The translations under genes and the position numbers were made by a program. 64,000 bases of DNA from an uncultured Alphaproteobacteria bacterium (GTDB lineage: Bacteria > Pseudomonadota > Alphaproteobacteria > Rs-D84). Below the pieces are notes generated by a model. That model worked only from the letters and a program-made list of their open reading frames with translations, ran no database searches and was not told the DNA's origin. Below are positions 4,375 to 61,371 of this stretch, in pieces (within the stretch, counting starts at the first letter, position 1; the number at the start of each line of letters is the position of its first letter). Location of the stretch: positions 9,820 through 73,819 of the forward strand of contig CAXHMP010000001.1 of NCBI GenBank assembly GCA_964017835.1, written 5' to 3'.

Positions 4375-6201
4375 TTATTTCTGCACAAAATGCACACTGT
4401 ATTGCGGTTTTTTGTCCGCCCCCAGCGCCGCACGTACAACACGGTTCGACGCCACCTGGACCGCGCGAATCAGATTTTCGCGGTCTTTGCGTTCCGTCTT
4501 GGTCAGATTGTCAATCGCGCGTGTGATTTCAATTTGAATCTGGCGCTTCATAAATCCGGTGTCATCGGTTTCAAAGATACCGGCACTGGATACTTCGGGA
4601 ACGCCCTTGAGGAATCCGCGCTTGTCCACCGGCAGGGTGACAAACACCGCCCCGTTGGTCGCAATTTTCTTGCGGTTTTTATAAACCTGGTCGTTGGCGG
4701 ACCGTTCGGTTTCGCCCTCCATCACGATAAAGCCGGTCTGGACCGTTTCCGTGACGTACGGCTGCGCCCCATCGGCCAGCGCAATCATTTCACCGTTATG
4801 GACGACCATCATAAATTTCGCACCGCCGCGTTCCATCGCCATTTTGCCGTTCAGCATTTCGTTGATGTAATCGCCGTGCATGGGGACCGCCACCTGGGGG
4901 TGGACCATGTCGTAAAAGCGTTCAAATTCCGGCCGGCCGGCATGTCCGCTGGCGTGGACATTGTTGGTGTCAAAAATCGTGTGCGTACGGATACCCATGC
5001 GCGCCAATTTGTTATACAGATACGACACGTCTTGTTCGCGGCCCGGAATAATAATGGCGCTGAAAATCACTGTGTCGGTCGGTTGTAATTTCATTTCCTT
5101 GACATGTCCCCGGCACAAACGCGTCAGCATGGCAAACTGTTCCCCTTGGGACCCGGTCAAGAATATGGCCTGTTTTTCAGCCGGCAGGTCTTTGATTTCG
5201 CTGTGCAGATAGACCTCGTCTTTGTCCAGGTATCCAAAATCAATTCCCATTTCCCGGAATTCCGGCAGGCCAACATACGGCACCGGGTTGGGATTACTGC
5301 GTTCCTTGATTGCGGCAACGCGGCCCGATGCGCGCGCGGCGGCGGCAAACATTTTCAAACGGGCAATCGACCGGGAATATCCCGTGACAATCACGCGGCC
5401 CGGCGCGTTTTTCATAATTTCGGTCAGGGAATCGCGTACCTCGGTTTCAGTCGTTTGTTTGGTTTGACGCGATACAGACGTTGAATCCGACATCACCGCC
5501 AGCAATTTCGGGTCGGACCCAATTTCACCCAGACGGGCGAAATCTGTCGGCGCTTCGACCGGGTTGTCGTCGTTAAAGGTCCAGTCACCCGTATGCAGTA
5601 TTTTACCCGCCGGCGTTTTGATGATAATCATCTGGGCTTCGGGTACAGAATGGGTGACGTGGAACGTTTCGATTTCAAACGGGTCCAATTTAAAGGACGC
5701 GCCGTTGTGGTCAAAGATGACGATATCTTTGTTCGGATTGAAATCGATTTCGCAACCCGCAAACGTGCGGCGGATGATTTCACCCGGGAAACGCGTGCAG
5801 TAAATCGGTTTGCGGAATTTGGGCCAAATGTATTTCAAAGCACCAATATGGTCTTCGTGGCCATGGGTGATGACAAAGCCGACCACATCCTTTTTATGCT
5901 TTTCCAACCAGGTTGTGTCACAGTATTGAACATCGCCGGCACCGATTTCTTCTTCTAAAAATCCCATACCACAGTCCACGACCAGGTATTTTCCCTTGTA
6001 CTTGTACACGTACATGTTTTGGCCGACATGTTCCAGACCGCCCAGCGCGACGAAATAGATTTTATCATCGTTTTTGTCGTTTTCATGTTTGGGCATCGGC
6101 GCAATTTTGGCCGGTGTTTTGGACTTAGTCTTGTTTTTTTGTTGCGGTTGTGCCGGCGTCGCTTTGGGCGCCGGGGCTGATTTTTCACGTACTTTGACCA
6201 T
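4375..6201 (-). CDS. rnj: Ribonuclease J (metallo-beta-lactamase/beta-CASP family)
   Basis: Carries the HGHEDHIGAL motif and MBL, beta-CASP and C-terminal domains. A Lys/Pro-rich N-terminal extension is typical of alphaproteobacterial RNase J. Confidence 0.9.
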   Translation of the reverse strand: MVKVREKSAPAPKATPAQPQQKNKTKSKTPAKIAPMPKHENDKNDDKIYFVALGGLEHVGQNMYVYKYKGKYLVVDCGMGFLEEEIGAGDVQYCDTTWLEKHKKDVVGFVITHGHEDHIGALKYIWPKFRKPIYCTRFPGEIIRRTFAGCEIDFNPNKDIVIFDHNGASFKLDPFEIETFHVTHSVPEAQMIIIKTPAGKILHTGDWTFNDDNPVEAPTDFARLGEIGSDPKLLAVMSDSTSVSRQTKQTTETEVRDSLTEIMKNAPGRVIVTGYSRSIARLKMFAAAARASGRVAAIKERSNPNPVPYVGLPEFREMGIDFGYLDKDEVYLHSEIKDLPAEKQAIFLTGSQGEQFAMLTRLCRGHVKEMKLQPTDTVIFSAIIIPGREQDVSYLYNKLARMGIRTHTIFDTNNVHASGHAGRPEFERFYDMVHPQVAVPMHGDYINEMLNGKMAMERGGAKFMMVVHNGEMIALADGAQPYVTETVQTGFIVMEGETERSANDQVYKNRKKIATNGAVFVTLPVDKRGFLKGVPEVSSAGIFETDDTGFMKRQIQIEITRAIDNLTKTERKDRENLIRAVQVASNRVVRAALGADKKPQYSVHFVQK

Positions 6202-19502: not shown

Positions 19503-19579
19503 GCGAGCGTAGCTCAGTTGGCTAGAGCGCAACCTTGCCAAGGTTGAGGTCGAGGGTTCGAGCCCCTTTGCTCGCACCA
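19503..19579 (+). tRNA. tRNA-Gly(GCC)
   Basis: 77-nt cloverleaf: GCGAGCGTAGCTCAGTTGG...CCTTGCCAAGG...GGTTCGAGCCC...CACCA. Confidence 0.9.
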
Positions 19580-19707: not shown

Positions 19708-20721
19708 TCAATCGAATGTTGCGCGCGCGATTTTTATCTTATCTTCGGTCAAGAATTTGGCATATCTCTGGGTCATTTTAGGGGATTTGTGGCCTAAATG
19801 AACCTGGGCGGCATACAGTGAATTTGTTGCCCGCACGACCGCAGTTCCCGAACCGTGCCGGACATCGTGGAAAGTATATTTATGTGGGGGAAATCCTGCG
19901 CGGCGACATGCCGCCGACCATGCGGTTTTAATGTCTTTGATTGGCTTGTCCTTATACATGATGACATATTCCCCTGTGCGCGGCAACGACTGCAATAGCT
20001 CCACCAAATGGCGCGGCATGGCGACGGTATGCAGGCGACCGCCCTCAAGTGTCTTGTCTTTCACGCGTTTTAAAATAAGACCATGTTCAAAATCAATCTC
20101 GTCCCAGCGCAGAGATAGCACGTTTTCACGGCGAAAACCTGTATAATACGCGATATCCATTGCCAGGCGCAGATGTGGCGCGGCCGCGTTCATTATCGCC
20201 AGGCGGTCATTGTTATCGACCAAGCCGATGCGTCCGTCCGGCTCGCGTTCGCGGAATTCCAGTGGACGAACATCGGGGGCGCGGTATCGCCATTTTTTGA
20301 GACAGGTGGTAATCACAGACGACAGGACGACCAGATGCCGGTTGATTGTGCCAGCGGCACGGCCGTCACGTTTCATGGCATAAATATAATCGTTGATGTC
20401 GGCGGCGGTTATTTTGGAAAAGATTTTGTCTGCGCCAAAAAAATCTGACATTTGGCGCAAAACATAAAAGACATTGCGGGGGACGGTGTATTTTTGTGCC
20501 TCGCGGGTGTAAAATTCGCCAAAAGCGGCGTTGACGGTAATGTCGTCATTATTGGCCGGGGCCAGCAAATCGGCCTCGGCCTGACGCGCGACAGCTATGG
20601 CTTTATCGCGTCCAGATTCGTGGGTTGAAATGCGGATAATTTGCGCCCGGCCGTTGACTTTGACCGATATGCGCGCCTGGTAATACGGCGTCCCTTTTCT
20701 TTTATACAGTTTATAAGGCAT
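19708..20721 (-). CDS. int: Tyrosine recombinase (phage integrase)
   Basis: C-terminal HDVRHG, LGHKS and MTQRYAKF catalytic R-H-R-Y motifs. A P4-like N-terminal arm-binding domain is present. Confidence 0.9.
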   Translation of the reverse strand: MPYKLYKRKGTPYYQARISVKVNGRAQIIRISTHESGRDKAIAVARQAEADLLAPANNDDITVNAAFGEFYTREAQKYTVPRNVFYVLRQMSDFFGADKIFSKITAADINDYIYAMKRDGRAAGTINRHLVVLSSVITTCLKKWRYRAPDVRPLEFREREPDGRIGLVDNNDRLAIMNAAAPHLRLAMDIAYYTGFRRENVLSLRWDEIDFEHGLILKRVKDKTLEGGRLHTVAMPRHLVELLQSLPRTGEYVIMYKDKPIKDIKTAWSAACRRAGFPPHKYTFHDVRHGSGTAVVRATNSLYAAQVHLGHKSPKMTQRYAKFLTEDKIKIARATFD

Positions 20722-29114: not shown

Positions 29115-29453
29115 ATGACGACAATCAGCAATCTTAAACCGGCGCGAACCAAGGCCGAAGCAAGGGAACGTGGCGCAAATGGCGGAAAAAAATCCGGCCA
29201 GGCGCGGCGCGAAAAAAAACTTATGCGCGAGGCCCTGGAAAAACGTATCGGCGCATCGCTGGACGCGGTTACTCAGGCACTGATTGATAAGGCCGCAACT
29301 GGTGACGTTCGTGCATATGAGGTCATCCGCGACACGTTGGGCGAAAAGCCGACTGACAAAGTTCAGATTGCAGGGCTGATTGAGCGCAGCGAGGCCGAGG
29401 AACTTGAAAATGAAATCTTATTCCCAGGCGGAAAGACGCAAGGCCGCACTTAG
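29115..29453 (+). CDS. Putative terminase small subunit
   Basis: Basic, HTH-like N-terminus. Its position directly upstream of, and overlapping, the large terminase supports the call. Confidence 0.4.
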   Translation: MTTISNLKPARTKAEARERGANGGKKSGQARREKKLMREALEKRIGASLDAVTQALIDKAATGDVRAYEVIRDTLGEKPTDKVQIAGLIERSEAEELENEILFPGGKTQGRT

Positions 29454-30711
29454 CTTTATTTTCGGCCGTCCGGTGGAATTGTTGCACCGTCTGGGACTGC
29501 CCGATACGACAGAAATGCATGGCCAGTGGCTGGTGGATTACCTGCGCAATTCCGACGAATTGACAATCATGGCCCACCGCGAGGCGTTTAAGACGTCAAT
29601 CCTATGTGTTGGCCTGGCCTTGAAACTGATTTTGTTTCCGCGTCGCAATCTGGGATTTTTCCGCAAGACCGACGATAAGGTGCGCGAGATTATACGTGGG
29701 ACACAACGGCATTTACGCACGCCGTTGCTGATAACCCTGTCGGATATGATTTGGGGATTTCCTATTGAGATGACCCGGGCAACGGATAATGAAATAGACA
29801 CCAATTACTATGTGCCGACAAAGGGCGAGGTTGCGCTTTATGGGTGTGGAATAAACGGCAGTATAACCAGCCGTCACTTTAACGATGTCACAACTGATGA
29901 TATCGTGGACCAGGACGACCGATATTACGATGCCGAGCGTGTAAAGACGCATCGTTTCCTGGACGAACTGGAAAATACGCAAAATCGTGGCGGGGTGCGT
30001 GCGAATTTTTGCACACCGTGGCACCGGAACGACGCGACAACGCGATTCCGGAATATCAAAAAGTTTCCAGCTAGCATGACGGGCTTGTTTACGTCGGCCC
30101 AGTTGCAACAAAAGCAACGCGCAATGGCCCCGGAGCTGTATGCGATAAATTACGAACTGGACCTGTCAGCGGCGAATGAATCTTTGTTCGCAAAACTGAC
30201 GCGCAAAGACGAGTGGAATCCGAACCGTGAGGTATTTGCATATCTTGACCCGTCACACAAGGGCGGCGACTACACCGCGCTGTGTATTGGCGCAATGTGC
30301 TTTGAACGTTTGCAAATTACCGGGTTTGTTTGGAAAAAGCCTTATTATGAAATCTTTGATAATGGGGACTTGGAAAAATATTGCATGTATCTGGGAGTCC
30401 AGGACCTGACGATAGAGACGAACGGGGTCGGCGATATGCCGGTGCGCCTGGCGCGAAAAATCAGTCGCGAGCGCATGGGGGGGCTGATGGCGGTGCACGG
30501 TATAAACCATACGGACAATAAAATGGCTCGAATCCAGACGGCGGCCGCATTTTGCGATTCCATAGACATCGTCACTTTTGACGACGTTGCGGAAAGTCGC
30601 GAGTTCGCGGCCCAGGTATGTGATTTTGATGCGTCGGCCAAACATGACGACGCCCCAGATTCTGTGGCGGGCGTTATGGAGGCCATGAGATTGATAAGGA
30701 TAAAAAAATAA
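29410..30711 (+). CDS. Terminase large subunit
   Basis: ATPase and nuclease domains of terminase-like architecture. SD gagga lies before the ATG at 29410. Confidence 0.8.
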   Translation: MKSYSQAERRKAALSFIFGRPVELLHRLGLPDTTEMHGQWLVDYLRNSDELTIMAHREAFKTSILCVGLALKLILFPRRNLGFFRKTDDKVREIIRGTQRHLRTPLLITLSDMIWGFPIEMTRATDNEIDTNYYVPTKGEVALYGCGINGSITSRHFNDVTTDDIVDQDDRYYDAERVKTHRFLDELENTQNRGGVRANFCTPWHRNDATTRFRNIKKFPASMTGLFTSAQLQQKQRAMAPELYAINYELDLSAANESLFAKLTRKDEWNPNREVFAYLDPSHKGGDYTALCIGAMCFERLQITGFVWKKPYYEIFDNGDLEKYCMYLGVQDLTIETNGVGDMPVRLARKISRERMGGLMAVHGINHTDNKMARIQTAAAFCDSIDIVTFDDVAESREFAAQVCDFDASAKHDDAPDSVAGVMEAMRLIRIKK

Positions 30712-42762: not shown

Positions 42763-44892
42763 ATGTCCCAAAAAACAAATCAAGTAAAAATTATTCGTCA
42801 GAATAAATGGTTTCGTTTGTGGATTGACCCTCGCAATTTTAATCCAAACGACCCACTGTCTTTTGAACACGGATTCGACATCTCGTTGTCCGTTGATTTT
42901 GACAATGACACATTGGCAAAAAATAACTATAACCGTTATGAAATAGCCCCACAGGCGTTTTCTATAAAAGAAAACATCGTCAAGTTCAAGACCGGTCAAA
43001 CAATGCCGTTTAAAGCATTTTGGTCTGAGTGTCTGAATAAAATCAACGGTCTCATTTCCAGCGTTGGCATAAATTCAGGCGAAATAATGGCCGAACAGGC
43101 CCGCGCGACTGATGCAGAAAAAGTCTTACGGGCGGGGATTGCCGCACTGGAAAAGGCGATAATCAGTAAAATAACATTGCCCAGCGCCATTTATTCGGTA
43201 GAACTGGAAAACCGACCCGAGGTTGTAAATATCAAAGTCAAATCCCGTGAAACAGATAAAGGCCAGGATACAACTGTTATTTTTCCGTTTCCAGTCGCGA
43301 ATGGCGAACATATCGGTTTGATGAATCCGGAAACGTTTCGCACTGTCACAGAACACGAAAAGCGCCTGGCGGCAATAGAGGGTCGCGCCGAACGCTGGCC
43401 GGTTAGACTGCCGGCGATGGACGTTTCACAGGCGCAATATCAGGCGGCCTATGAACAGGCGGCTAGGGTGTCTGCCGGCACGATTCCGCCAGACGGAACA
43501 ATGTTAGATAATCTGACGAATAACCACCTGATAAAATATTATAGCAATGCGCCAGCTGGCAGTTCGGAACATTGGATTGACCGCGGGGAGGATACCGTCG
43601 GTCAGGCATCAAACGATACAGCCGGGATTGTAAAAGGCGACGCGATTACACCGGGAAAGATATTTGTTGAGAGCGACGGCTCAATGTCCGTCAATGGGTG
43701 GGATTCAGCCATTGCTGAGGTAAGAGCCGCGGCGGAAAACGCTGCTGAGCATGCGACTTTTGCAAAAAAAGATGCTGATGCCGCGGCGGCCAGTTCGGTC
43801 GCCGCAGAAGAAAACGCCGCGCGTGCGATAAACGCGGCCGATGTCGCCGCCTCCGCAGACATTGCGGCCCGCGTCGCGGCGGAAAATGCCGCAGAAAGCG
43901 AGGGCGTCGCCAAACAAGCATCAGATACGGCTTGCGATTGGGCGACAAAAATGAACGGTCCTGTCGCTGATGATGAATACAGCGCGAAACATTATGCGAC
44001 CAATGCGGCCGCGTCAGAGTCTGGGGCAAAGAGTTCAGAAAAAAATGCGTTTGATAGTGCAACCTCGGCGCACAATGAGGCACAGGCCGCCAGCGATTCC
44101 GCGACCAGCGCCGCCGCCAGTGCGGCCGCCGCGGAAGAATCTGCACAGAATACTCAGCAAAACGAACAGCTGTTACAAGGGCATGTTGAACAGGCTGCGG
44201 CGTCAGCCAAAACGGCGCAATCATCGGCGGCCAGCGCAACCAGTTCGGCAACGACCGCCACAAACAGCGCAAATGCGGCGACCGCGTCAGCCAATGACGC
44301 CGCCGGCTCTGCAAGCAACGCCAGAAAATCAGAATTGGCGGCCGGAGCTAGTGCATCTGCAGCTGATGCGTCATTGACGGCGGCAAATAAAAGTCAAGTA
44401 GCGGCGGCAAATTCTGCTGATAATGCCGCCAGTTCAGCGGCCAGCGCGTCTGATTCTGCCGATTTAGCGGCGGGGGCAGCGACCAGCGCGGAGCAATCAG
44501 CAATAAATGCTGCCGGCTCTGCCGCCAGTGCCGAAACCAGTGCCACAGCTGCCGATGCGGCAAAAGCCGCGGCCCAGGTCAGCCAACAGGCGGCGGCTGG
44601 CAGTGCCGCGTCAGCGGAACAAAACGCACATGCCCTGGATGTCGCGGTTGTAAATGCGGCGGCGTCTGCGCAGACGGCGGAAAGGTCTGCGGCCAGCGCG
44701 GCCGGTTCGGCCGTCGCTGTCGATGCGGTCAAGCAAGAGATGATTGATTTTGTAGAACAACAAAAATCTGAATTCGCCACAAAGGGCGACCTGGAAGAAC
44801 TTTACCGGAAAGCCTTCGGGCCTCAAGACTATGGGTCAATTCAAGACCCTGTTTTAGAAGCGGTGGATTTCGGGTCAATGGAGGTAAAATAA
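42763..44892 (+). CDS. Tail fiber protein with long Ala/Ser-rich repeat region
   Basis: 709 aa. Residues 330-650 are low-complexity A/S/N/E repeats typical of phage fibers. Confidence 0.6.
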   Translation: MSQKTNQVKIIRQNKWFRLWIDPRNFNPNDPLSFEHGFDISLSVDFDNDTLAKNNYNRYEIAPQAFSIKENIVKFKTGQTMPFKAFWSECLNKINGLISSVGINSGEIMAEQARATDAEKVLRAGIAALEKAIISKITLPSAIYSVELENRPEVVNIKVKSRETDKGQDTTVIFPFPVANGEHIGLMNPETFRTVTEHEKRLAAIEGRAERWPVRLPAMDVSQAQYQAAYEQAARVSAGTIPPDGTMLDNLTNNHLIKYYSNAPAGSSEHWIDRGEDTVGQASNDTAGIVKGDAITPGKIFVESDGSMSVNGWDSAIAEVRAAAENAAEHATFAKKDADAAAASSVAAEENAARAINAADVAASADIAARVAAENAAESEGVAKQASDTACDWATKMNGPVADDEYSAKHYATNAAASESGAKSSEKNAFDSATSAHNEAQAASDSATSAAASAAAAEESAQNTQQNEQLLQGHVEQAAASAKTAQSSAASATSSATTATNSANAATASANDAAGSASNARKSELAAGASASAADASLTAANKSQVAAANSADNAASSAASASDSADLAAGAATSAEQSAINAAGSAASAETSATAADAAKAAAQVSQQAAAGSAASAEQNAHALDVAVVNAAASAQTAERSAASAAGSAVAVDAVKQEMIDFVEQQKSEFATKGDLEELYRKAFGPQDYGSIQDPVLEAVDFGSMEVK

Positions 44893-46500: not shown

Positions 46501-46887
46501 TTATGCGGCCAATGCGCGTCGCACGGCGGAATCAATAAAGCCAGAACGATTGCTTGTGATATTGTCTATTTTACACAAGATGTCCTCAGACAAAATGATG
46601 TTGATTCTTTTGTTTTTGGCTTTCAATGGCAATAAATCAACAATGCCAGCGGTAAATTCATAGTTCTCTTTCCACTCTTGCCAATCCGGCCATTCGGCTT
46701 TGATTTGTTCCAGTGTGCGGGGTTTTGGCATATTTTTCTCGCCGTCGGCATACAATGATAAGGCCTCATGCGCATTGCGCACGGCGTCATCAAAGTTGTC
46801 GCCGGCACTGGTCAGGCCCGGCAGGTCCGGAAACACAACGCCGACCGAATTTTCACCAAATTCAAATAAAGCAACGTATTTTTTCAT
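46501..46887 (-). CDS. hicB: HicB-family antitoxin
   Basis: RNase H-like N-terminal domain plus a C-terminal RHH (SRSGFIDSAVRRAL). Confidence 0.75.
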   Translation of the reverse strand: MKKYVALFEFGENSVGVVFPDLPGLTSAGDNFDDAVRNAHEALSLYADGEKNMPKPRTLEQIKAEWPDWQEWKENYEFTAGIVDLLPLKAKNKRINIILSEDILCKIDNITSNRSGFIDSAVRRALAA

Positions 46888-46914
46888 AACGAACTCCTTT
46901 TTTTGTGGCGGGGC

Positions 46915-47103
46915 TTATTTCAGCCCCGCTTGTTTTAATATTGCCGTCGCCGTTCCTTTTGGCAGGTCTTTGCGCGGGTGCGGTATTATGACCTGTCCAG
47001 GCTTTGACGGGTGTTTGTATTTGTGGTGACTGCCAGTCGTATTGACTAATTCCCACCCGTCTTTTTCTATCGCCTTTATCAAGTCTTTACTGCTGTAATT
47101 CAT
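46915..47103 (-). CDS. hicA: HicA-family mRNA interferase toxin
   Basis: GSHHKYKHP...VIIPHP...GTATAILKQAGL HicA signature. Confidence 0.8.
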   Translation of the reverse strand: MNYSSKDLIKAIEKDGWELVNTTGSHHKYKHPSKPGQVIIPHPRKDLPKGTATAILKQAGLK

Positions 47104-48740: not shown

Positions 48741-48910
48741 AAGACAAATATTAATACAAAAATATTAATTGTCAACAAAAATATTGTAATTTACTTCTTT
48801 ACTTTTCGGACCGGCCATGTATAATTGGCATGAAATTAAAAAACATTGGAAAAACGAATGAAATTTGGAATTAAACGCTTGAACTAATGACGGTGCGACC
48901 ATCAATTTAC

Positions 48911-48946
48911 TGACGGACGCACTTTCTTGGCGTCCGTTTTTTTAAT
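48911..48946 (+). terminator. Hairpin with T-run in the lysS leader
   Basis: gacggacgc...gcgtccgtc followed by T7, about 20 nt before the lysS RBS. Confidence 0.4.
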
Positions 48947-48968
48947 GTCAAGACCAAGGGAATTAATC

Positions 48969-50435
48969 ATGGCAGAAAACACGACAATTTCGACGAATGA
49001 ATTACAGGCGCGCCTGCAAAAGGCCGAAAACATCCGTGCGCGTGACGGTGTTGTGTGGAAGGATAAATTTGACCGCACGCATACCATTGCCGCGGCACGT
49101 GATTTAGATGACGCATCGGCGGTTAAATTGGCCGGTCGTGTGACGGCACTGCGATGGTTGGGCAAATTGATGTTTGGCCGGATATACGATATTGACGGCG
49201 AAATTCAATTTTCAATGTCGCGCGAAGAAATGGGCGAAGAAACCTATAAATTTTTCAAGGCCAATGTCGATTTGGGGGATTTTGTAGGCTTGACCGGTGA
49301 ACTGTATCACACGACGGCCGGCGAATTGACTGTACGGGTTTCGGCCTATGAAATTTTGGCCAAGGCCCTGCGTCCGTTGCCGGAAAAGTTTCATGGGTTA
49401 ACCGATACCGAAACGCGTTATCGCCAACGGTACCTGGACATCATTTCCAACCCCGATGCCCGTGCGGCATTGCTGGGGCGGTTCAAGATGACGCAATATT
49501 GGCGTGATTTTATGAACCGGAACGGATTTCTGGAAATTGAAACACCGATTATGCAAAATGTTGCGTCCGGGGCGGCGGCCAAACCCTTTACGACCCATCA
49601 CAATGCGCTGGATGCGGATTTTCAGTTGCGGATTTCACCTGAATTATTCTTGAAACAGGCAATTGGTGCCGGATTTGACCGCGTCTATGAAGTGGCCAAA
49701 GATTTCCGCAACGAAGGCATGGATGCCATGCATCTTCAAGAATTTACCATGGTTGAATGGTATGCGGCCTATTGGGACTTTGAACGCAATATGAAATTTA
49801 CGTGGGATTTAATCCAAGACCTGTTGATGAAAACCCGCGGCACGTTGAAAATCGAATACCAGGGAACGCCGCTGGATTTCACATCATATGAAACGATGGA
49901 CTATACGGCCAAAATGAACGAGTTCTTTGGATGCAACATTTTGGACTTTGATGATGTGGATGCGTTGCGGGCGCGCCTGGTTGAAAACGGCATGTTCCCG
50001 GCGGGTGAATTGGATGATTTGAAATCTATCCCGGCATTGGTTGATTATGTCTATAAACGTAAAATCCGTGGAAATATCATTAATCCGACATTCCTGTACA
50101 ATTATCCGGCGTATATGGTGCCATTGGCGCGGCGTAACAATGATGATGACCGGCGGATTGACATGTTTCAATTGCTGGTCTGTGGGGCAGAATTGTGCAA
50201 GGGATATTCCGAATTGGTCAATCCCATCCAGCAATTGGCGGCATTCGAAGAACAGGCGAAAAATATCGCCCATGGTGACGAAGAGGCCTTTAACCCCGAC
50301 AACGATTTTGTGCGCGCCATGGAACATGGATTTCCGCCGATTTCGGGCGTTGGCATGGGGGTTGACCGTTTGGCCAGCATAATCTTTGACCAACCGACGT
50401 TGCGTGATGTTATCTTGTTCCCGATTATGAAATAA
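48969..50435 (+). CDS. lysS: Lysine--tRNA ligase (class II)
   Basis: Class II motifs (FRNEG, GxGxDR) and an anticodon-binding OB N-terminus. Confidence 0.9.
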   Translation: MAENTTISTNELQARLQKAENIRARDGVVWKDKFDRTHTIAAARDLDDASAVKLAGRVTALRWLGKLMFGRIYDIDGEIQFSMSREEMGEETYKFFKANVDLGDFVGLTGELYHTTAGELTVRVSAYEILAKALRPLPEKFHGLTDTETRYRQRYLDIISNPDARAALLGRFKMTQYWRDFMNRNGFLEIETPIMQNVASGAAAKPFTTHHNALDADFQLRISPELFLKQAIGAGFDRVYEVAKDFRNEGMDAMHLQEFTMVEWYAAYWDFERNMKFTWDLIQDLLMKTRGTLKIEYQGTPLDFTSYETMDYTAKMNEFFGCNILDFDDVDALRARLVENGMFPAGELDDLKSIPALVDYVYKRKIRGNIINPTFLYNYPAYMVPLARRNNDDDRRIDMFQLLVCGAELCKGYSELVNPIQQLAAFEEQAKNIAHGDEEAFNPDNDFVRAMEHGFPPISGVGMGVDRLASIIFDQPTLRDVILFPIMK

Positions 50436-50444
50436 GGGCGTTTC

Positions 50445-51845
50445 ATGATTACCGAAGATTATATGACGGTATTGACCGCCGATTATGACCGGAAAAATCT
50501 GGACACCATTGCACGTGCCTTGGCATCAAACCGTATTAATGACGAAGCGGCCGATTATTTAACCATGCTGTATTCCAACAGCATGAAGTGGTGCCGCGAA
50601 ATGTTCTATTTCCTGGGGAAATGTTTCGGTGCACCCAAGGCCCCCGTCATGCGTTATGATTATGCAACCGACAGTGCGATTGATGAACCCATTCGGATTG
50701 CAGATATCAATCCGCTGTCGCCCTATATCGTCCAGCATCGTTTGGATGCCGACCCCATGCGGAACCAGTTTTTTGACAATCGCCCCGGCCACCGGGTTGA
50801 TTTGGCTGTTTCATCAATTGTGACGGTTATTGTCGGCGCCCAAAAGAATGTCGACCGGGCGTTGGACAAAGTGACGGGTAAATATTATTCGAAATATGTC
50901 GACGAAGTCGTCGATACCGTTCATCGGGTTATTGCCGCCCATGATTCAGACGATGTGGCGCGTGAAACCGCCGAAAAAATCCGTAAAAAATTGGGGGAAA
51001 ATTATATTTCTGCCCCGTCCGAGGCTGTGTTATCCTTTATCGGTTCGGGACATGAAAAAATTGCCGTTGATTTAGTGCGTGCGCTGGATCGGGTCAAGCG
51101 TCCGCGCATGCGTCTGCAGGATGTGTGGCGGGCCAAGTGTTTGTTCGATTTGGTCCCCCAGGCACGCACCTTTATTGAACGCGTCCGCAAGATGATGCCG
51201 GACCGGGTGCTGTCTGTGCGCGACAGTTTTTATGATACAAACAATCCCCGCAATTATCGCGATGCGAAAATCATTATTGATATTGGGACCGACGGGCGGG
51301 TTATTCCCATGGAAATTATATGCCAGGTGCGGACGTTTTTTGACTTTGAACAGCGTACACACCAAGCGTACGAGGTAACGCGCCAATCTGCGGATGGTCA
51401 AACCGCATCCATGGACCAGATTGTGGCCAAACTGCACGAAGACGGCGTCAAAGAATATAATTTGTTGGTCGTTAGATGTTTGGAAGATTTGTTTGAACGC
51501 GTGGGGTGGAATATTTTATACAGTCACGGATTGAAAACCCCGCTGTTTGATGGGTTCCCAAAAGATTGCACCATGTATTATCCCCAGAAAATGGTCGACA
51601 CCATCATGGATAAATTGGACAATGCCACAGAAAATGAAGTCTTTCATGTGACATCGGCGCCGGCCAAACTGACCATGGCCCAGGAAACAGAAATCTTTCG
51701 GTGGCTGGTGCGGTTTATATTGGTGACGGCGATTCCCTATGCGGATGACAAATGGACGGTTCCGACCGATACAATGTCGGGAAAACTGTTCAATTTCGTC
51801 ATGAAGGAAGTTCAGCGTTATTATAAAAAAAATCCGGTGTCTTAA
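50445..51845 (+). CDS. Hypothetical protein with RelA/SpoT-like nucleotidyltransferase motifs
   Basis: Ordered motifs RVKRPR, DVWRAK, RDSFYDTNNPRNYRDAKIII and MEIICQVRT resemble RSH synthetase motifs in order and spacing. Confidence 0.4.
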   Translation: MITEDYMTVLTADYDRKNLDTIARALASNRINDEAADYLTMLYSNSMKWCREMFYFLGKCFGAPKAPVMRYDYATDSAIDEPIRIADINPLSPYIVQHRLDADPMRNQFFDNRPGHRVDLAVSSIVTVIVGAQKNVDRALDKVTGKYYSKYVDEVVDTVHRVIAAHDSDDVARETAEKIRKKLGENYISAPSEAVLSFIGSGHEKIAVDLVRALDRVKRPRMRLQDVWRAKCLFDLVPQARTFIERVRKMMPDRVLSVRDSFYDTNNPRNYRDAKIIIDIGTDGRVIPMEIICQVRTFFDFEQRTHQAYEVTRQSADGQTASMDQIVAKLHEDGVKEYNLLVVRCLEDLFERVGWNILYSHGLKTPLFDGFPKDCTMYYPQKMVDTIMDKLDNATENEVFHVTSAPAKLTMAQETEIFRWLVRFILVTAIPYADDKWTVPTDTMSGKLFNFVMKEVQRYYKKNPVS

Positions 51846-51973: not shown

Positions 51974-52309
51974 ATGCGTCAAGGTAAAGTAAAATGGTAT
52001 AACGGCAAGAAATGCTTTGGATTTATTACGCCCGATGCCCCGAATGATGATGGCAACCGGGATGATGTCTTTGTTCATTCCAGCGCGTTAAAGGCGGCAG
52101 ATTTGCGCTTTTTGAATGAAAATGATACGGTTGAATTTGATGAAGAAGTGCGTAACGGTAAACTGTCGGTCACGACATTGAAATTGATTGCGCGTGACGA
52201 AGAATCGGCCCGCCGGTTCCAGGAACGCCGCGCCCAATATCGCAATCGTGATGCGCGGGATTCGGAAAATGAACCCCGTCGCCGCGGATTCGCATTTTGG
52301 AAAAAATAA
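51974..52309 (+). CDS. Cold-shock domain protein with basic C-terminal tail
   Basis: CSD motif GKVKWYNGKKCFGFI. Long 5' UTR. Confidence 0.8.
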   Translation: MRQGKVKWYNGKKCFGFITPDAPNDDGNRDDVFVHSSALKAADLRFLNENDTVEFDEEVRNGKLSVTTLKLIARDEESARRFQERRAQYRNRDARDSENEPRRRGFAFWKK

Positions 52310-52338
52310 AAATCCCCCGACCGGGGGATTTTTTTTGA
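52308..52338 (+). terminator. Rho-independent terminator
   Basis: aaaaatcccccgaccgggggattttttttg. Confidence 0.65.
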
Positions 52339-52905: not shown

Positions 52906-53994
52906 TTACTTGATTTCAATGGGGATGACGGTTTGCATTTTGTCCGTGTCCATGGGGTGGACCTGGTGCGCGACAGAATCCCAATCAATTGTTTTCAAAT
53001 CGATTGACCGGATGACACTGTTGTACATGGTGCGGTAATAAATTTTTCGACCCGTCATGTCCATAACGGCGGTCCACTGGGTGGCGGACGGCATGTTGAC
53101 GGGAACCTGGCCGATGGGGAATTCCACCCCGACCGGAATGTCAAAATTGTTCAGGATATGAAACGCCTGCATCACGCCGGCGTATGCCGTCTGTTGCGGG
53201 ACGGCCGTCGATTGGTAAAACGCGGCGCGCACAAACCGTGACGGTGGCGTCACGTCCCCGGGAATTCCCAGCATGCCCGAACCGCTGCCAAAGGCGGTCA
53301 TTTCAATATTCCCCAGTTTTGTGGGACCGGCCGTGCCAGGCTTTAAATTAACGTAATTGTTTAAATTCGTCATGTGCCATTCAAAGCCTGGTGCGTTGGT
53401 CAGCACCCCCAGCGTGTTTTCATAAAAGTGCGGCACGCCGCCAATGATTTCTAAAACGACCTGGCGGCCGGTGAAATCTGTGATGCGCCAATGTACGGTT
53501 GACGACCGTGGGTCAATGCCAACAATACGAATATCGCCGATGGCATCCCGAATCTGGTCGATTGTCGCAAATTCCGACAGCATCCACGACACCAATTGAA
53601 AATCGGATACGGTTTTGTCGGCGTATGCCGGGTCGTATTCAACGTATTGGCCATATCCCGGGAAATAGAACAATTCTGCTACTAAGCCCGCTTCGTTCAT
53701 GCCTTCGACGACGTATTCGGGTTCTTCGACCGCCAGGCCGACATAGCCGTATGTGGCGGTGAATTCCATACCGTCCTTTTGGCCGCCGGGGACAAATGAC
53801 CGCTGGGTATGGCCATGCGGAATGACGGTGTACAGGTTGGTCATTTCACTGCCGCCCCATTCAATGGTGCGCGCCACAATTAATGAATTGTCTTTGGTTT
53901 TCAGGGTGATACCCGTACAGGCATGCGCCCCGGCGGTTATGGCGGCGGCGCCAAGAATCAGCGCGGCCCCGGTTAAATTTTTTTTCGTGTTCAT
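52906..53994 (-). CDS. Choloylglycine hydrolase/penicillin V acylase-family Ntn hydrolase (secreted)
   Basis: A signal peptide ending AHA, followed by the nucleophile Cys (CTGITL). The start was trimmed to the MNTKKNL Met. Confidence 0.6.
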   Translation of the reverse strand: MNTKKNLTGAALILGAAAITAGAHACTGITLKTKDNSLIVARTIEWGGSEMTNLYTVIPHGHTQRSFVPGGQKDGMEFTATYGYVGLAVEEPEYVVEGMNEAGLVAELFYFPGYGQYVEYDPAYADKTVSDFQLVSWMLSEFATIDQIRDAIGDIRIVGIDPRSSTVHWRITDFTGRQVVLEIIGGVPHFYENTLGVLTNAPGFEWHMTNLNNYVNLKPGTAGPTKLGNIEMTAFGSGSGMLGIPGDVTPPSRFVRAAFYQSTAVPQQTAYAGVMQAFHILNNFDIPVGVEFPIGQVPVNMPSATQWTAVMDMTGRKIYYRTMYNSVIRSIDLKTIDWDSVAHQVHPMDTDKMQTVIPIEIK

Positions 53995-54086
53995 AATAAA
54001 ATTATGGCGAAATGCGCCGTGCGTCGCCATAAGAATAATCCCCGCATGTTCGGGGAATAAAAAACGCGGGGATTGCCCCGCGTCAA

Positions 54087-55070
54087 TTAAAATTCGAACC
54101 GTATTCCCAACATAATGTTCACCCAGAACATGTTGTCGCCGTTGAACCAATCCCGGTCGCGGTCGCCATCTTTGGTCGTTAACGCCCATTTGACCGTCGG
54201 AACATATGTTAACCGCGCCCCCAGGTCCAAGAACATCGATTCTGTGATGCCGTACGAAAATCCCGCCGCCAGCAATCCGGCAACGGTGCCGGTGTTCTTT
54301 TCCGATTGGTAAAATTGCAAAATGTCGTATTGGTCCAGTTCCCCGTAATTCTGTAATTCCGCCGACAGAGATAAATCCCCATACAAATCGGTCAGATTTA
54401 AAACCGTTTTGACGTCGGCATATCCCATCCCAAACCCGACATAGGGAATCATTTGACGTGTGGGTTTGACCAAACCGTCGAAAAAGTCGTAAAAGGCCAT
54501 GACACTGAAAATATCAGCAGTCAATTTGGAATGGGCGCCCCCACTTTCGATACGTGCGGTTAATCCCTGGACATTACCGCCATCCAGCGCCAGGTCACCT
54601 GCGAACAGGGGGGATGCGTTATAATCGCTTTCGGCAATATGGTCCCAGCCCAATTCAACGCGCCATTGTGGCGTGTTGGGTATGGTCCATCCCATCGATG
54701 CCCCGGCCGCAAATGAAAACGATGAATAATCTTCGGTCGCGCCCAGTTCTGACAAATTTGCCATTCCGGCGTATTCAAAGCCTTCACATCCGCCGGCATC
54801 AATACAACTTTTGTAATAGGCGGCCGACACAATCGCGCCGTTGTCGGGACTGTAATAATATTCGCCGGTCAATGCGCCCATTTTGTTTTTTATGCCGCCA
54901 AACCCCATCGATGCGCCGCCGCGCACAGATACGATAAAACGCGCGCCGTCGTCCATGTACCATCCGTCGCCGGTATAGACGCCGCTGTATTCCCAATTGG
55001 CATGCGCCGCGCCCACCATCAGGCAGGACAGGGCAGAAGATATAATCAGATTCCTTGCTTTCATGCTCAA
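54087..55070 (-). CDS. Outer-membrane beta-barrel protein
   Basis: Signal peptide, alternating amphipathic strands and a C-terminal Phe (IRFEF). Confidence 0.6.
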   Translation of the reverse strand: MSMKARNLIISSALSCLMVGAAHANWEYSGVYTGDGWYMDDGARFIVSVRGGASMGFGGIKNKMGALTGEYYYSPDNGAIVSAAYYKSCIDAGGCEGFEYAGMANLSELGATEDYSSFSFAAGASMGWTIPNTPQWRVELGWDHIAESDYNASPLFAGDLALDGGNVQGLTARIESGGAHSKLTADIFSVMAFYDFFDGLVKPTRQMIPYVGFGMGYADVKTVLNLTDLYGDLSLSAELQNYGELDQYDILQFYQSEKNTGTVAGLLAAGFSYGITESMFLDLGARLTYVPTVKWALTTKDGDRDRDWFNGDNMFWVNIMLGIRFEF

Positions 55071-60243: not shown

Positions 60244-61371
60244 CTAATATTTTACCTCTACAATTAAATCTTTACCGACAAATTCGAATAGCGCAACAAA
60301 ATTTTTAATATTACTTGTCATATCAATGCAACCGGCAGACCCAGGCGCCCAGCCGCCATGAATGCTGAAATTATCACGACCATATGTATTGGTTTCTTTG
60401 GACGGTTCTAACCAGACACGCGAGCTTCCCCAAGACATTGAAGACCCGGGCCAAGCACCCCTATCAGTAACTTTAGTCGTCCAGCCAACAAGCCAATCTG
60501 TAGCAGACATAAACTGTAGTTTTTCCTGTCTTGCAACATACATCCCTTCTGGGATTGGACCTGTGGATTTCTGGTCTTGATATTCTGGGCTTTGGTAACC
60601 GGAACGACCAGACACCGCATCCCATGATATTGACGGTTTGTTATCTAGATACAATGTAAATTTCTTGCCATCAAATACTGCATAATAACCCGGCTTGGTA
60701 TTAACCGGCTTCTCAAATGTTGCTTTTTCTGGCGGGGTGTTGGCCATCTTTTCTGGCGTTGATGCTGGTTCCTTTGCTGAAAATGGCTTGCTGCTGATAG
60801 TATTGCCATCTGAATCTATTACATCCTCGGTTATGCTGCATCGGCAATTGGGATGCACCGGGGTGGAAGGGATGTCATCTTCGCTTTCATATATTTCGCC
60901 ATCGCGCGATGCACACGCGGAACAGGTGTTATCGCCATCTTCACTATGCCAACGCCATACGCGCCGTGGTTTGTCGTTTGGCATATCATCATCGTCCTCT
61001 GGCAGGTCAAGGGTATAAACCTCTAGCTGTTTATTTTCTATTGTGCCCAACGGCATCAGAACACGAACATCTATGGTTTCTTCTAAGTCTACATAGTCTT
61101 CAACATCTATCCGGCGACCGGCTTCTTCATATTCTGCTTCGGCATTGGCTATTGCTTCTTCTAGCGCAGACTCTAATGCCTTTTGGGCCTTACGAAATTG
61201 CTCTAATGTCATATCGTATTTTGGTTCGGTCATGCGTCCGGTGGCATCTTGGGCCAACGCACCCGGATACAGCATTTTTAAATATTTTTCTGCCATAGCA
61301 TACGTATTGCTGTTTTTATCCATATATGCGGGCGATGACATCAGCGTTCGCAAAAATTGTGGTGTTTTCAT
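60244..61371 (-). CDS. Orphan polymorphic toxin: MuF C-terminal fragment fused to a Tlde1/YkuD-like L,D-transpeptidase domain
   Basis: MuF motif CSACASRDGEIY...PVHPNCRCS in the middle. C-terminal GPIPEGMYV...FSIHGGWAPGSAGCID (His, then Ser-x-Gly-Cys). Confidence 0.5.
   Translation of the reverse strand: MKTPQFLRTLMSSPAYMDKNSNTYAMAEKYLKMLYPGALAQDATGRMTEPKYDMTLEQFRKAQKALESALEEAIANAEAEYEEAGRRIDVEDYVDLEETIDVRVLMPLGTIENKQLEVYTLDLPEDDDDMPNDKPRRVWRWHSEDGDNTCSACASRDGEIYESEDDIPSTPVHPNCRCSITEDVIDSDGNTISSKPFSAKEPASTPEKMANTPPEKATFEKPVNTKPGYYAVFDGKKFTLYLDNKPSISWDAVSGRSGYQSPEYQDQKSTGPIPEGMYVARQEKLQFMSATDWLVGWTTKVTDRGAWPGSSMSWGSSRVWLEPSKETNTYGRDNFSIHGGWAPGSAGCIDMTSNIKNFVALFEFVGKDLIVEVKY

Follow-up and report, generated by a model that had tools for sequence, protein, structure and literature searches.

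RelA/SpoT-homolog (RSH) enzymes are central growth-control switches in bacteria. The small alarmone synthetases (SASs) among them were sorted into 30 subfamilies in a 2020 census charted by sequence HMMs (PMC7229694), and the residue roles on which we draw below have been described for RelP (PMC5794853) and for FaRel2 (PMC11782079). Here we describe a gene whose family the HMMs behind that census cannot see. It lies in a 64,000-nucleotide stretch of DNA (the window) from an uncultured alphaproteobacterium (contig CAXHMP010000001.1) and encodes a 466-aa divergent protein, protein X, which on its modelled structure has the RSH synthetase fold.

Gene X (50445..51845, + strand) is an ATG-initiated ORF whose exact coordinates agree with the ORF list, and it lies 9 nt past lysS, the gene behind which an earlier note on this DNA, made from the sequence alone, had placed it. 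The lysS gene (48969..50435, +) encodes a class II lysyl-tRNA synthetase (LysRS) with an OB anticodon domain (Pfam tRNA-synt_2, E = 1.6e-73); the ORF list starts it at a TTG at 48927, and the ATG at 48969 is the likelier start, giving 488 aa and matching the product called on identical contigs and homologs. No terminator is present in the 9-nt spacer between the two genes (50436..50444, +), and a weak AAGGG Shine-Dalgarno sequence ahead of gene X overlaps the lysS stop codon, an arrangement consistent with co-transcription and translational coupling of the pair. Upstream of lysS, the best sigma-70-like match (48798..48825, +; TTTACT-16-TATAAT, 10/12) is a candidate operon promoter predicted purely by consensus matching. 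Downstream of gene X, a cold-shock-domain protein gene (csp; 51974..52309, +), conserved as its partner in 74 of 79 loci, is preceded by a 129-nt leader of its own, and a weak promoter-like sequence lies at 51796-51824. A strong, bidirectional intrinsic terminator (52308..52333; 11-bp stem, T-runs on both strands) is the first long-stem terminator-like site 3' of lysS and forms the end of the lysS-X-csp unit. A link between gene X and the prophage in the window was rejected: a partial tRNA-Gly near 47.36 kb marks the end of the prophage, and prophage-free genomes show the lysS-X unit with the same neighbours.

Described as an orphan by the earlier note, protein X proved merely unannotated. Its homologs number at least 615 at E <= 1e-3, and 257 species-level genomes of Ca. 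Enterousia (order Rs-D84) carry relatives. In all 85 loci lysS lies immediately upstream, and the next gene (GT2) varies; across public genome loci, X is 62-81% identical and LysRS 70-98%. The host genomes measure 0.75-1.0 Mb, with one closed chromosome of 958,618 bp. No relatives were detected in plasmids, phages or viral contigs (the viral contigs scanned with the close alignment), and neither an antitoxin-like nor a small conserved ORF sits beside gene X: lysS precedes it by 9 nt, and csp follows after 129 nt. Gene X is inherited vertically, is under strong constraint and belongs to the core genes of these reduced-genome gut alphaproteobacteria. Its chromosomal location, invariable lysS linkage, lack of an antitoxin and absence from phages and plasmids give it the look of a housekeeping gene rather than a toxin, and its retention in such small genomes likewise disfavours the toxSAS flavour raised for it at first. 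Searches for canonical Rel/SpoT by tblastn (E. coli RelA and SpoT) and an SAS HMM found none in the window plus 90 loci (1.46 Mb), a sample that covers one neighbourhood redundantly rather than whole genomes. Literature searches turned up no paper connecting ppGpp with Enterousia or Rs-D84, nor any joining an SAS with lysS.

The structural evidence for an RSH fold comes from two models. In Foldseek searches of the PDB with the AlphaFold2 model of X (pLDDT 79.9, pTM 0.78), the top 42 matches were all RSH synthetases (RelP, CapRel, RelQ, FaRel2; prob ~1.0, TMt ~0.5), led by RelP 6ewz (E = 1.3e-4) and CapRel 9erv (E = 1.5e-4), and the PDB matches also included long RSHs (24io, 7oiw, 5xnx) at E about 0.07-0.09. 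RelA/SpoT family proteins were likewise the top matches in BFVD, a viral structure library. A sister subfamily at ~20% identity, modelled separately (pLDDT 90.6), had RSHs only as its top 19 PDB matches, and the long RSH 1vj7 was among its matches. The earlier suspicion of a divergent RelA/SpoT-synthetase-like protein was thus sustained, with nucleotidyltransferase-fold matches of the RSH type returned for both models. The structural E-values (~1e-4) and TM-scores (~0.5) are moderate, since the aligned part covers no more than about 140 of the 466 residues, and identity to SAS structures is ~13%.

At the sequence level, homology between X and RSHs is detectable profile-to-profile only. Pfam and NCBIfam, including RelA_SpoT PF04607, gave no match at E <= 1, PADLOC gave none, the best PHROGs match was not significant (E = 0.013), a single-sequence search of PDB sequences brought up no meaningful match and a family-HMM search none at all, and a local SAS HMM scored X at E ~1-4. 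By hhalign, the X family aligned with authentic SAS sequences at a probability of 72% (E = 3.5e-5), rising to 92% (E = 6.1e-7, 138 columns) with the helical insertion described below taken out. The score of 47.5 lies ~13 sd above 40 column-shuffled nulls (mean 12.3, sd 2.7, max 20.5). Divergent members are needed for this signal, the close-family alignment alone being weak (E = 0.0056), and the Syn1 segment on its own is not significant (E = 0.26), with its register unchanged. Additionally, Pfam scans of ten distant relatives brought up a single linking domain, a globin fused to the RSH-like domain in P0168; this fusion hints at the architecture of a sensor-coupled signalling enzyme.

The catalytic core of X is split into two segments, residues 125-145 and 224-315, by an inserted helical module. 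Ahead of it, the N-terminus (residues 1-124; 50445..50816, +) folds into three helices (6-61) and a small beta region (69-99); this part is common to the distant sister subfamily, and structure searches found no known-domain match for it. The first core segment (50817..50879, +) comprises strand beta1 (125-130) and the Syn1 helix (131-145), which reads GAQK134NVDR138ALDK142. The insertion between Syn1 and Syn2 (residues 146-223; 50880..51113, +) spans ~80 aa in five helices; P0128 lacks it, and in both P0123 and the sister subfamily it is shorter. The Syn2-Syn4 core follows (residues 224-315; 51114..51389, +), and then a C-terminal helical domain (residues 316-466; 51390..51842, +) with a long helix (321-360) and three further helices. 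Structure and sequence searches returned no significant match for this last domain, a candidate regulatory or oligomerisation module in the model. Together with the N-terminal domain and the insertion, it is probably a lineage-specific addition with a presumed regulatory role.

This layout departs from the one first proposed. All four motif strings reported by the earlier note occur in X, at residues 216-221, 226-231, 259-278 and 289-297 rather than within 240-330. Of the four matches to the ordered Rel core, that of RVKRPR to RxKxxxS is wrong: RVKRPR (216-221) falls within the insertion, its K218 is not conserved, and hhalign places the stretch on the RelP linker, so that it is not a catalytic motif, the true equivalent being QK134xxxR138xxxK142. 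With this misassignment, the compact core at 240-330 between unknown flanking domains falls as well; the C-terminal flank is indeed without a match, while the supposed 200-aa N-terminal region holds the 125-145 core segment and the ~80-aa insertion.

In a 25-sequence superfamily alignment reaching down to 18% identity, the sole invariant columns are K134, D226, R229, Y271, E290 and H306, five of which correspond to the phosphate-binding Lys, Mg2+ Asp, acceptor-stacking Tyr, catalytic Glu and ribose His of RelP. The Asp, Glu and stacking Tyr singled out from the DNA at the start hold in relatives at 18-23% identity, where D226, E290 and Y271 are invariant. In the hhalign register, the Syn1 motif RxKxxxSxxxK becomes A132-x-K134-xxx-R138-xxx-K142, equivalent to the triphosphate-binding R58-V-K60...S64...K68 of RelP; both lysines are conserved, Ser is replaced by Arg, and across the superfamily K134 is invariant and R138 and K142 nearly so. 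The Syn2 strand, D226-V-W-R229-A-K231, starts with the equivalent of the Mg2+ ligand and replaces the Gly of DxxGxR with the invariant R229. The Syn2-Syn4 core also holds D260. Its G-loop, N267-PRNY271RDAK275, carries the equivalent of the acceptor-base-stacking residue in Y271 (invariant in 40/40 and 25/25 sequences; aligned with RelP Y131/Y151) and has low pLDDT in the AlphaFold2 model, resembling the flexible G-loop of RelQ. The strand E290-IICQV bears the equivalent of the catalytic Glu, and H306, the ribose-contact equivalent, lies on a helix 16 residues further on, the same spacing as RelP E154/H170.

Other positions have changed. Both adenine-stacking arginines of canonical RSHs are replaced in X: that of RxK by A132 (in 39 of 40 sequences) and that of DxxGxR by K231, a position occupied by T, S or C in the sister subfamily. 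ATP-coordinating residues have been called "strictly conserved among RelP/RelQ" (PMC5794853), and the equivalents of R78 and R112 are not conserved in X. Furthermore, members of the Enterousia clade carry Ile at 292 in place of the Gln that follows the catalytic Glu, and the sister subfamily reads EIQLK. Since A132 and K231 replace residues treated as crucial for canonical ATP binding, and Gln gives way to Ile, the donor or even the chemistry may differ.

We therefore hold, with moderate confidence, that X is a small-alarmone-synthetase-like pyrophosphokinase, predicted to be active and probably an alarmone synthetase. With an NTP as donor, it would pass the beta,gamma-pyrophosphate on to a purine nucleotide at its 3'-OH. 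K134 and K142, with R138 in place of Ser, would bind the donor triphosphate as in RelP and FaRel2; D226 and E290 would hold the catalytic Mg2+, Y271 would stack the acceptor base and H306 would contact the donor ribose. The donor pocket appears remodelled, with the adenine-stacking arginines lost (A132, K231) and the new invariant R229 and W228 gained. A (p)ppGpp-type alarmone is the most likely product, because the basic residues by the G-loop Tyr (R269, R272, K275) are kept, as in alarmone synthetases. Co-transcription with the LysRS gene would tie expression of X to the translation apparatus.

The acceptor is not readable from sequence, a literature search for RSH acceptor-specificity rules having yielded none usable, and a tRNA acceptor fits equally well with the tRNA-acting neighbours found in several lineages. 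[quoted passage not shown] Domesticated as a regulated housekeeping factor, it would then adjust aminoacylation (of tRNA-Lys, for instance), and its own C-terminal helical domain would inhibit it or act as a sensor. We consider this unlikely. CapRel 9erv is the second-best PDB match, the large protein has extra domains that could bind tRNA or auto-inhibit, and neighbours acting on tRNA or aminoacyl-tRNA recur in independent lineages, from lysS to a YbaK-like tRNA_edit gene (P0153/P0173) and fmt (P0165). However, translation genes are abundant in reduced genomes and such neighbours are partly expected; moreover, the neighbour theme is kept as a rival only, because in two lineages the gene sits after ruvB. 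Gene X is also core and syntenic rather than sporadic or mobile, and it lacks an antitoxin gene and a detected pZFD-like domain. Finally, judged by sequence, the basic residues by the G-loop Tyr are kept in X, whereas the acceptor-side positive patch of tRNA-targeting FaRel2 is reported to be smaller (PMC11782079).

A broader proposal, which we regard as rather doubtful, is that X founds an unrecognised RSH-fold family specific to minimal-genome gut alphaproteobacteria, in which the rebuilt donor pocket and extra domains give a new activity. It might, for instance, pyrophosphorylate tRNA-Lys or some other translation component in a regulated way, with LysRS as partner, or make a non-canonical nucleotide messenger. 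On this reading X could also be the last alarmone-type enzyme of genomes that have shed Rel/SpoT. The rebuilt donor-base pocket might instead lead to a different nucleotide: (p)ppApp, or one made with a pyrophosphate donor other than ATP. The arginines that sandwich adenine in RelP and FaRel2 are replaced, the new invariant R229 and W228 lie in the same strand as K231, and there are known RSH enzymes that make (p)ppApp or have dual specificity. This is nonetheless improbable: H306 and the triphosphate lysines are kept, leaving ATP as the default expectation, and the characterised (p)ppApp makers are toxins with immunity partners, whereas gene X has no such partner.

Loss of activity altogether, with X serving as a nucleotide- or alarmone-binding regulator or as a scaffold associated with LysRS, is more improbable still. 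Changes at canonical motif positions (R to A at 132, G to R at 229, R to K at 231, Q to I at 292), the lack of a Pfam match and the large share of the protein taken up by extra domains speak for it, but the superfamily-wide invariance of D226, E290, K134, Y271 and H306 is the signature of selection on catalysis. Pseudoenzymes usually lose metal ligands and the catalytic base. A chance motif match on an unrelated fold, to which the empty single-sequence and family-HMM searches of Pfam and PDB sequences and the low identity to SAS structures might point, is effectively refuted by the RSH-only top matches of two independently built models, the hhalign score far above shuffled controls and the same register at five functional residues, including the +16 Glu-His spacing.

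X and its family deserve study on several grounds. It is a core gene of genomes of ~0.75-1.0 Mb, in which little dispensable DNA survives, and it is fixed to an aminoacyl-tRNA synthetase gene, with an intact catalytic centre, a rewired donor-base pocket and an insertion in the catalytic domain. Should X make (p)ppGpp, it would illustrate how stringent-type control persists in a minimal gut symbiont; should it act on tRNA or yield another product, RSH chemistry would extend from toxins to housekeeping physiology. It also offers a clean case of a conserved "hypothetical protein" from an abundant uncultured gut lineage to which a testable biochemical function can now be assigned.

Among known systems, the RelP/RelQ SASs provide the best structural matches to X and share its beta1/Syn1-helix/beta2/alpha/beta3/G-loop/beta4/alpha topology. 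X keeps the equivalents of K80, K88, D107, Y151, E174 and H190 (SaRelP numbering), and is similarly chromosomal, without an antitoxin and housekeeping in look. It differs in its length of 466 aa against about 210 aa (200-230 aa for the single-domain type), in the insertion and the extra N- and C-terminal domains, in lacking a PF04607 match and equivalents of R78 and R112, and in an invariant Arg in place of G110, all at an identity of ~13%. The tRNA CCA-end pyrophosphokinases CapRel (7ztb, 9erv) and FaRel2 (8pu1) have the same RSH synthetase fold and are among the top matches of X, and CapRel is likewise a single polypeptide with a C-terminal extension, which in X could regulate the catalytic domain. 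In contrast to these enzymes, X has no detected pseudo-Zn-finger domain or antitoxin gene and lies outside defence islands, prophages and plasmids; its gene is part of the conserved, syntenic core and does not have the sporadic occurrence of an accessory gene. Neither the adjacent or fused antitoxin nor the mobile distribution that mark toxSAS modules (FaRel, FaRel2, PhRel, CapRel, Tas1) was found for gene X. The synthetase domain of the long RSHs (Rel, RelA, SpoT) is homologous to that of X, although their architecture is entirely different: X lacks an HD hydrolase domain, and regulatory domains of the TGS, ZFD or ACT/RRM kinds were not detected in it. Their link to translation and amino-acid supply is nevertheless analogous in spirit to the presumed co-transcription of X with an aminoacyl-tRNA synthetase gene.

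Gene X (window 50445-51845, + strand), which begins with ATG and encodes a 466-aa protein, is missed by Pfam, NCBIfam and PADLOC and has no significant PHROGs hit. Its fold is that of a RelA/SpoT homolog (RSH). An AlphaFold2 model built on the 40-sequence close-family alignment (mean pLDDT 79.9, pTM 0.78) places strand 228-234, helix 237-250, strands 255-260, 273-279 and 288-295, and helix 296-314 near the motifs. Its top 42 Foldseek matches in the PDB are all RelA/SpoT-type synthetases, including S. aureus RelP (6ewz, E = 1.3e-4), Salmonella CapRel (9erv, E = 1.5e-4), B. subtilis RelQ and RelP, an exported Streptomyces small alarmone synthetase (SAS) and FaRel2, with probabilities of ~1.0 and target-normalised TM-scores of ~0.45-0.52; the first non-RSH match, OAS1, appears at rank 43 (probability 0.33). 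‘RelA/SpoT family protein’ entries also rank first in a viral structure library. As an independent replicate, the sister subfamily P0153 (~20% identical to X), modelled from its own 28-sequence alignment (pLDDT 90.6, pTM 0.87), yields only RSH synthetases among its top 19 PDB matches, while its flanking helical regions have no significant match in the PDB structure search.

Profile comparison agrees with the structural evidence. The SAS reference alignment comprised four sequences from PDB entries (a YwaC sequence identical to 6fgk_A, and three target sequences from printed alignments). Against it, hhalign placed the broad family alignment (25 sequences with identities as low as 18%) at Prob 71.6%, E = 3.5e-5 over 73 columns, and the broad-family core minus residues 147-218 at Prob 92.1%, E = 6.1e-7 over 138 columns (RelP 34-184). 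The real score of 47.5 compares with 12.3 +/- 2.7 (max 20.5) for 40 column-shuffled SAS alignments and 13.9 for a reversed one. RSH homology is almost certain, and the central idea of the earlier note, a divergent RelA/SpoT-like synthetase, is borne out.

In the resulting register (BsRelP numbering; SaRelP = +20), X residues A132, K134, R138, K142, D226, R229, K231, D260, Y271, R272, D273, K275, E290, I292 and H306 correspond to BsRelP R58, K60, S64, K68, D87, G90, R92, D121, Y131, R132, S133, H135, E154, Q156 and H170, respectively. The four motif strings of the earlier note are present, at 216-221, 226-231, 259-278 and 289-297 rather than within 240-330, and the Syn1 equivalent is probably GAQK134NVDR138ALDK142, following strand 125-130. 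RVKRPR, previously taken for Syn1, instead falls on RelP residues 69-86, the linker, and contains an unconserved Lys. The proposed architecture, with the core at 240-330, must also be redrawn: natural variants confirm residues 146-223 as an insertion, since the relative P0128 runs straight through (‘...GSQKNVGRAISKSLAKEHLNDIYRIKCLF’) and the inserts of P0123 and the sister subfamily are shorter.

In SaRelP, R78 and R112 stack the donor adenine, H190 contacts the ribose, K80, S84, K88 and R91 bind the phosphates, D107 and E174 hold Mg2+, and the G-loop Y151 stacks the acceptor base (PMC5794853); the FaRel2 equivalents are R64, K66, S70, K74, R77, D90, G93, R95, Y128, E145 and Q147 (PMC11782079). 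The only invariant columns of the 25-sequence superfamily alignment are K134, D226, R229, Y271, E290 and H306, the Asp, Glu and stacking Tyr on which the earlier reading relied among them, with R138, K142, D273 and K275 nearly invariant. Selection has thus kept the catalytic set: the lysines for the triphosphate, the two carboxylates of Mg2+ binding and catalysis, the Tyr that stacks the acceptor and the His at the ribose. The pattern indicates that X is probably an active enzyme. Neither adenine-stacking Arg of canonical RSHs is retained: 39 of 40 close members have Ala at 132, and position 231 holds Lys in close members but T, S or C in the sister family. Furthermore, an invariant Arg (R229) takes the place of the DxxGxR Gly and follows a Trp invariant in the close family, and the residue after the catalytic Glu, canonically Gln, is Ile in the Enterousia clade, though 10 of 25 broader members keep Gln. 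The donor-base pocket appears to have been rebuilt, and the donor, though probably an NTP, may no longer be ATP.

X is no orphan, as had been supposed, having at least 615 homologs at E <= 1e-3; the 120 top matches (65-92% identity, 463-486 aa) are unnamed or ‘hypothetical’. When one genome per species was scanned, relatives turned up in 257 species-level genomes, almost all of them from uncultured gut Alphaproteobacteria under the name Candidatus Enterousia; one is a closed chromosome of 958,618 bp. Genomes of this order, Rs-D84, span ~0.75-1.0 Mb and lack the TCA cycle and respiration, and the lineage probably relies on other organisms as partners (PMC12306168). Only 49 proteins emerged from an exhaustive profile search of 1.84 billion cluster representatives, and only 44 from one seeded with the most distant full-length relatives; the one named protein among the 44 comes from an alphaproteobacterial MAG, and the superfamily is thus a narrow, lineage-specific one. 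Two loci deposited as ‘Bacteroides fragilis’ (L034) and ‘Muribaculaceae’ (L070) bins carry an Enterousia-type lysS-X-csp block, with X at 65-69% identity, and are probably mis-binned alphaproteobacterial contigs.

Within these genomes X is a core gene. As the earlier note stated, it lies directly downstream of lysS, a class II lysyl-tRNA synthetase gene (ORF 48927-50435, +; likely start ATG 48969, 488 aa; Pfam tRNA-synt_2, E = 1.6e-73; OB anticodon-binding domain), whose end is 9 nt from the ATG of X; a weak Shine-Dalgarno sequence (AAGGG) overlaps the lysS stop codon. Neither the lysS-X spacer nor the gap between X and the downstream cold-shock-domain gene csp (51974-52309, +) contains a terminator-like site; after csp, a strong bidirectional terminator lies at 52308-52333; the best promoter-like site, a consensus match only, is upstream of lysS (48798-48825). 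In all 85 loci (80 from species-representative genomes) lysS is the gene directly before X, in the same orientation, and in 74 of 79 csp follows; the gene upstream of lysS, a GT2 glycosyltransferase, could be detected in only about one locus in four. Identity across public genome loci is 62-81% for X and 70-98% for LysRS, so that X appears only moderately less constrained than the essential synthetase. No copies occur in 72,556 plasmids, 50,697 phage genomes or a viral-contig collection, no PADLOC defence model matches, and no small conserved antitoxin-like ORF flanks X. These results argue for a housekeeping gene and against the earlier leaning towards a toxin, whether a toxSAS toxin-antitoxin or a defence module.

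Elsewhere in the window, a ~28-kb prophage (19503-47356) is integrated in tRNA-Gly(GCC), with the full tRNA at 19503-19579 and an exact ~55-bp repeat of its 3' part, an att duplication, ending at ~47356. It encodes an integrase (19708-20721, -), a large terminase subunit (29380-30711), a tail-fibre-like protein (42763-44892) and, at its right end just inside the att repeat, a HicA toxin/HicB antitoxin pair (61 and 128 aa; 46501-47103, -). About 1.6 kb separate the end of the prophage from lysS, and it has no relation to X. Just past the csp terminator, a choloylglycine (bile-salt) hydrolase family protein (52906-54189, -; CBAH, E = 2.3e-61) is consistent with a gut habitat; its start is probably internal, because the ORF overlaps the next (54087-55070, -) by ~100 nt. 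A 375-aa protein (60244-61371, -) has a C-terminal Tlde1 domain (Pfam, E = 2.3e-8), an L,D-transpeptidase-like type VI effector domain, unexpected in a ~1-Mb genome.

X would be an active pyrophosphokinase: Y271 would stack a purine-containing acceptor, whose 3'-OH would receive pyrophosphate from an NTP. A nucleotide acceptor, making X an alarmone synthetase, is favoured because X is housekeeping-like and lacks an antitoxin, because R269, R272 and K275, basic residues flanking the G-loop Tyr, are kept, and because the distant relative P0168 joins the domain to a globin; an alarmone-type product has even odds or slightly less. The acceptor side of alarmone synthetases bears a large basic patch, reduced in tRNA-targeting FaRel2 (PMC11782079). 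P0168 (L093:247-1521, on a 2-kb contig; E = 5.6e-4 to the family profile) carries an RSH-like K/D/R/Y/E/H constellation in its N-terminal half and a C-terminal globin domain (Pfam Globin, E = 5.7e-22), and may be a globin-coupled RSH-like signalling enzyme, by analogy with sensor-regulated second-messenger enzymes.

The main alternative, action on a tRNA CCA-end acceptor, draws on the suggestive recurrence of tRNA-acting genes beside more divergent X relatives, which lie in other chromosomal contexts: P0153 and P0173 are divergent from a YbaK-type tRNA_edit gene, and P0165 is convergent with fmt. These neighbours are inconsistent among lineages, however, and support a rival only, because reduced genomes are rich in translation genes. 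P0125 precedes a U32-family gene, and P0122 follows ruvB, as does P0126 with a CdiA_C-domain gene between. At the latter locus (L087), the intervening ORF (5379-5732) encodes a 117-aa CdiA_C toxin-domain protein, with a gene for an AAA_23/SMC_N ATPase on the other side, a conflict-system-like context unlike that in Enterousia. Synthesis of (p)ppApp or another product is less likely, and so is a non-catalytic binder, against which the conserved constellation argues. No sequence rule for acceptor choice was found in the RSH literature searched. No canonical Rel/SpoT or hydrolase occurs within 1.46 Mb (the window plus 90 loci), which is essentially one neighbourhood.

Although RSH enzymes are already widely recognised as highly diverse, X is a solid, testable finding in an abundant uncultured gut lineage. 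We found no description of the family in the literature searched, and the published RSH census, based on HMM searches (PMC7229694), would miss it. X clearly belongs to the RSH superfamily, as a presumed enzyme of a distinct, structurally elaborated family. RelP and RelQ are its closest known proteins in fold and catalytic residues, and CapRel resembles it as a single polypeptide with a C-terminal extension. Unlike all three, X has a core split by a ~80-aa insertion, unrecognised N-terminal (1-124) and C-terminal (316-466) domains, neither adenine-stacking arginine, a sequence to which curated RSH models are blind, and a fixed linkage to lysS.
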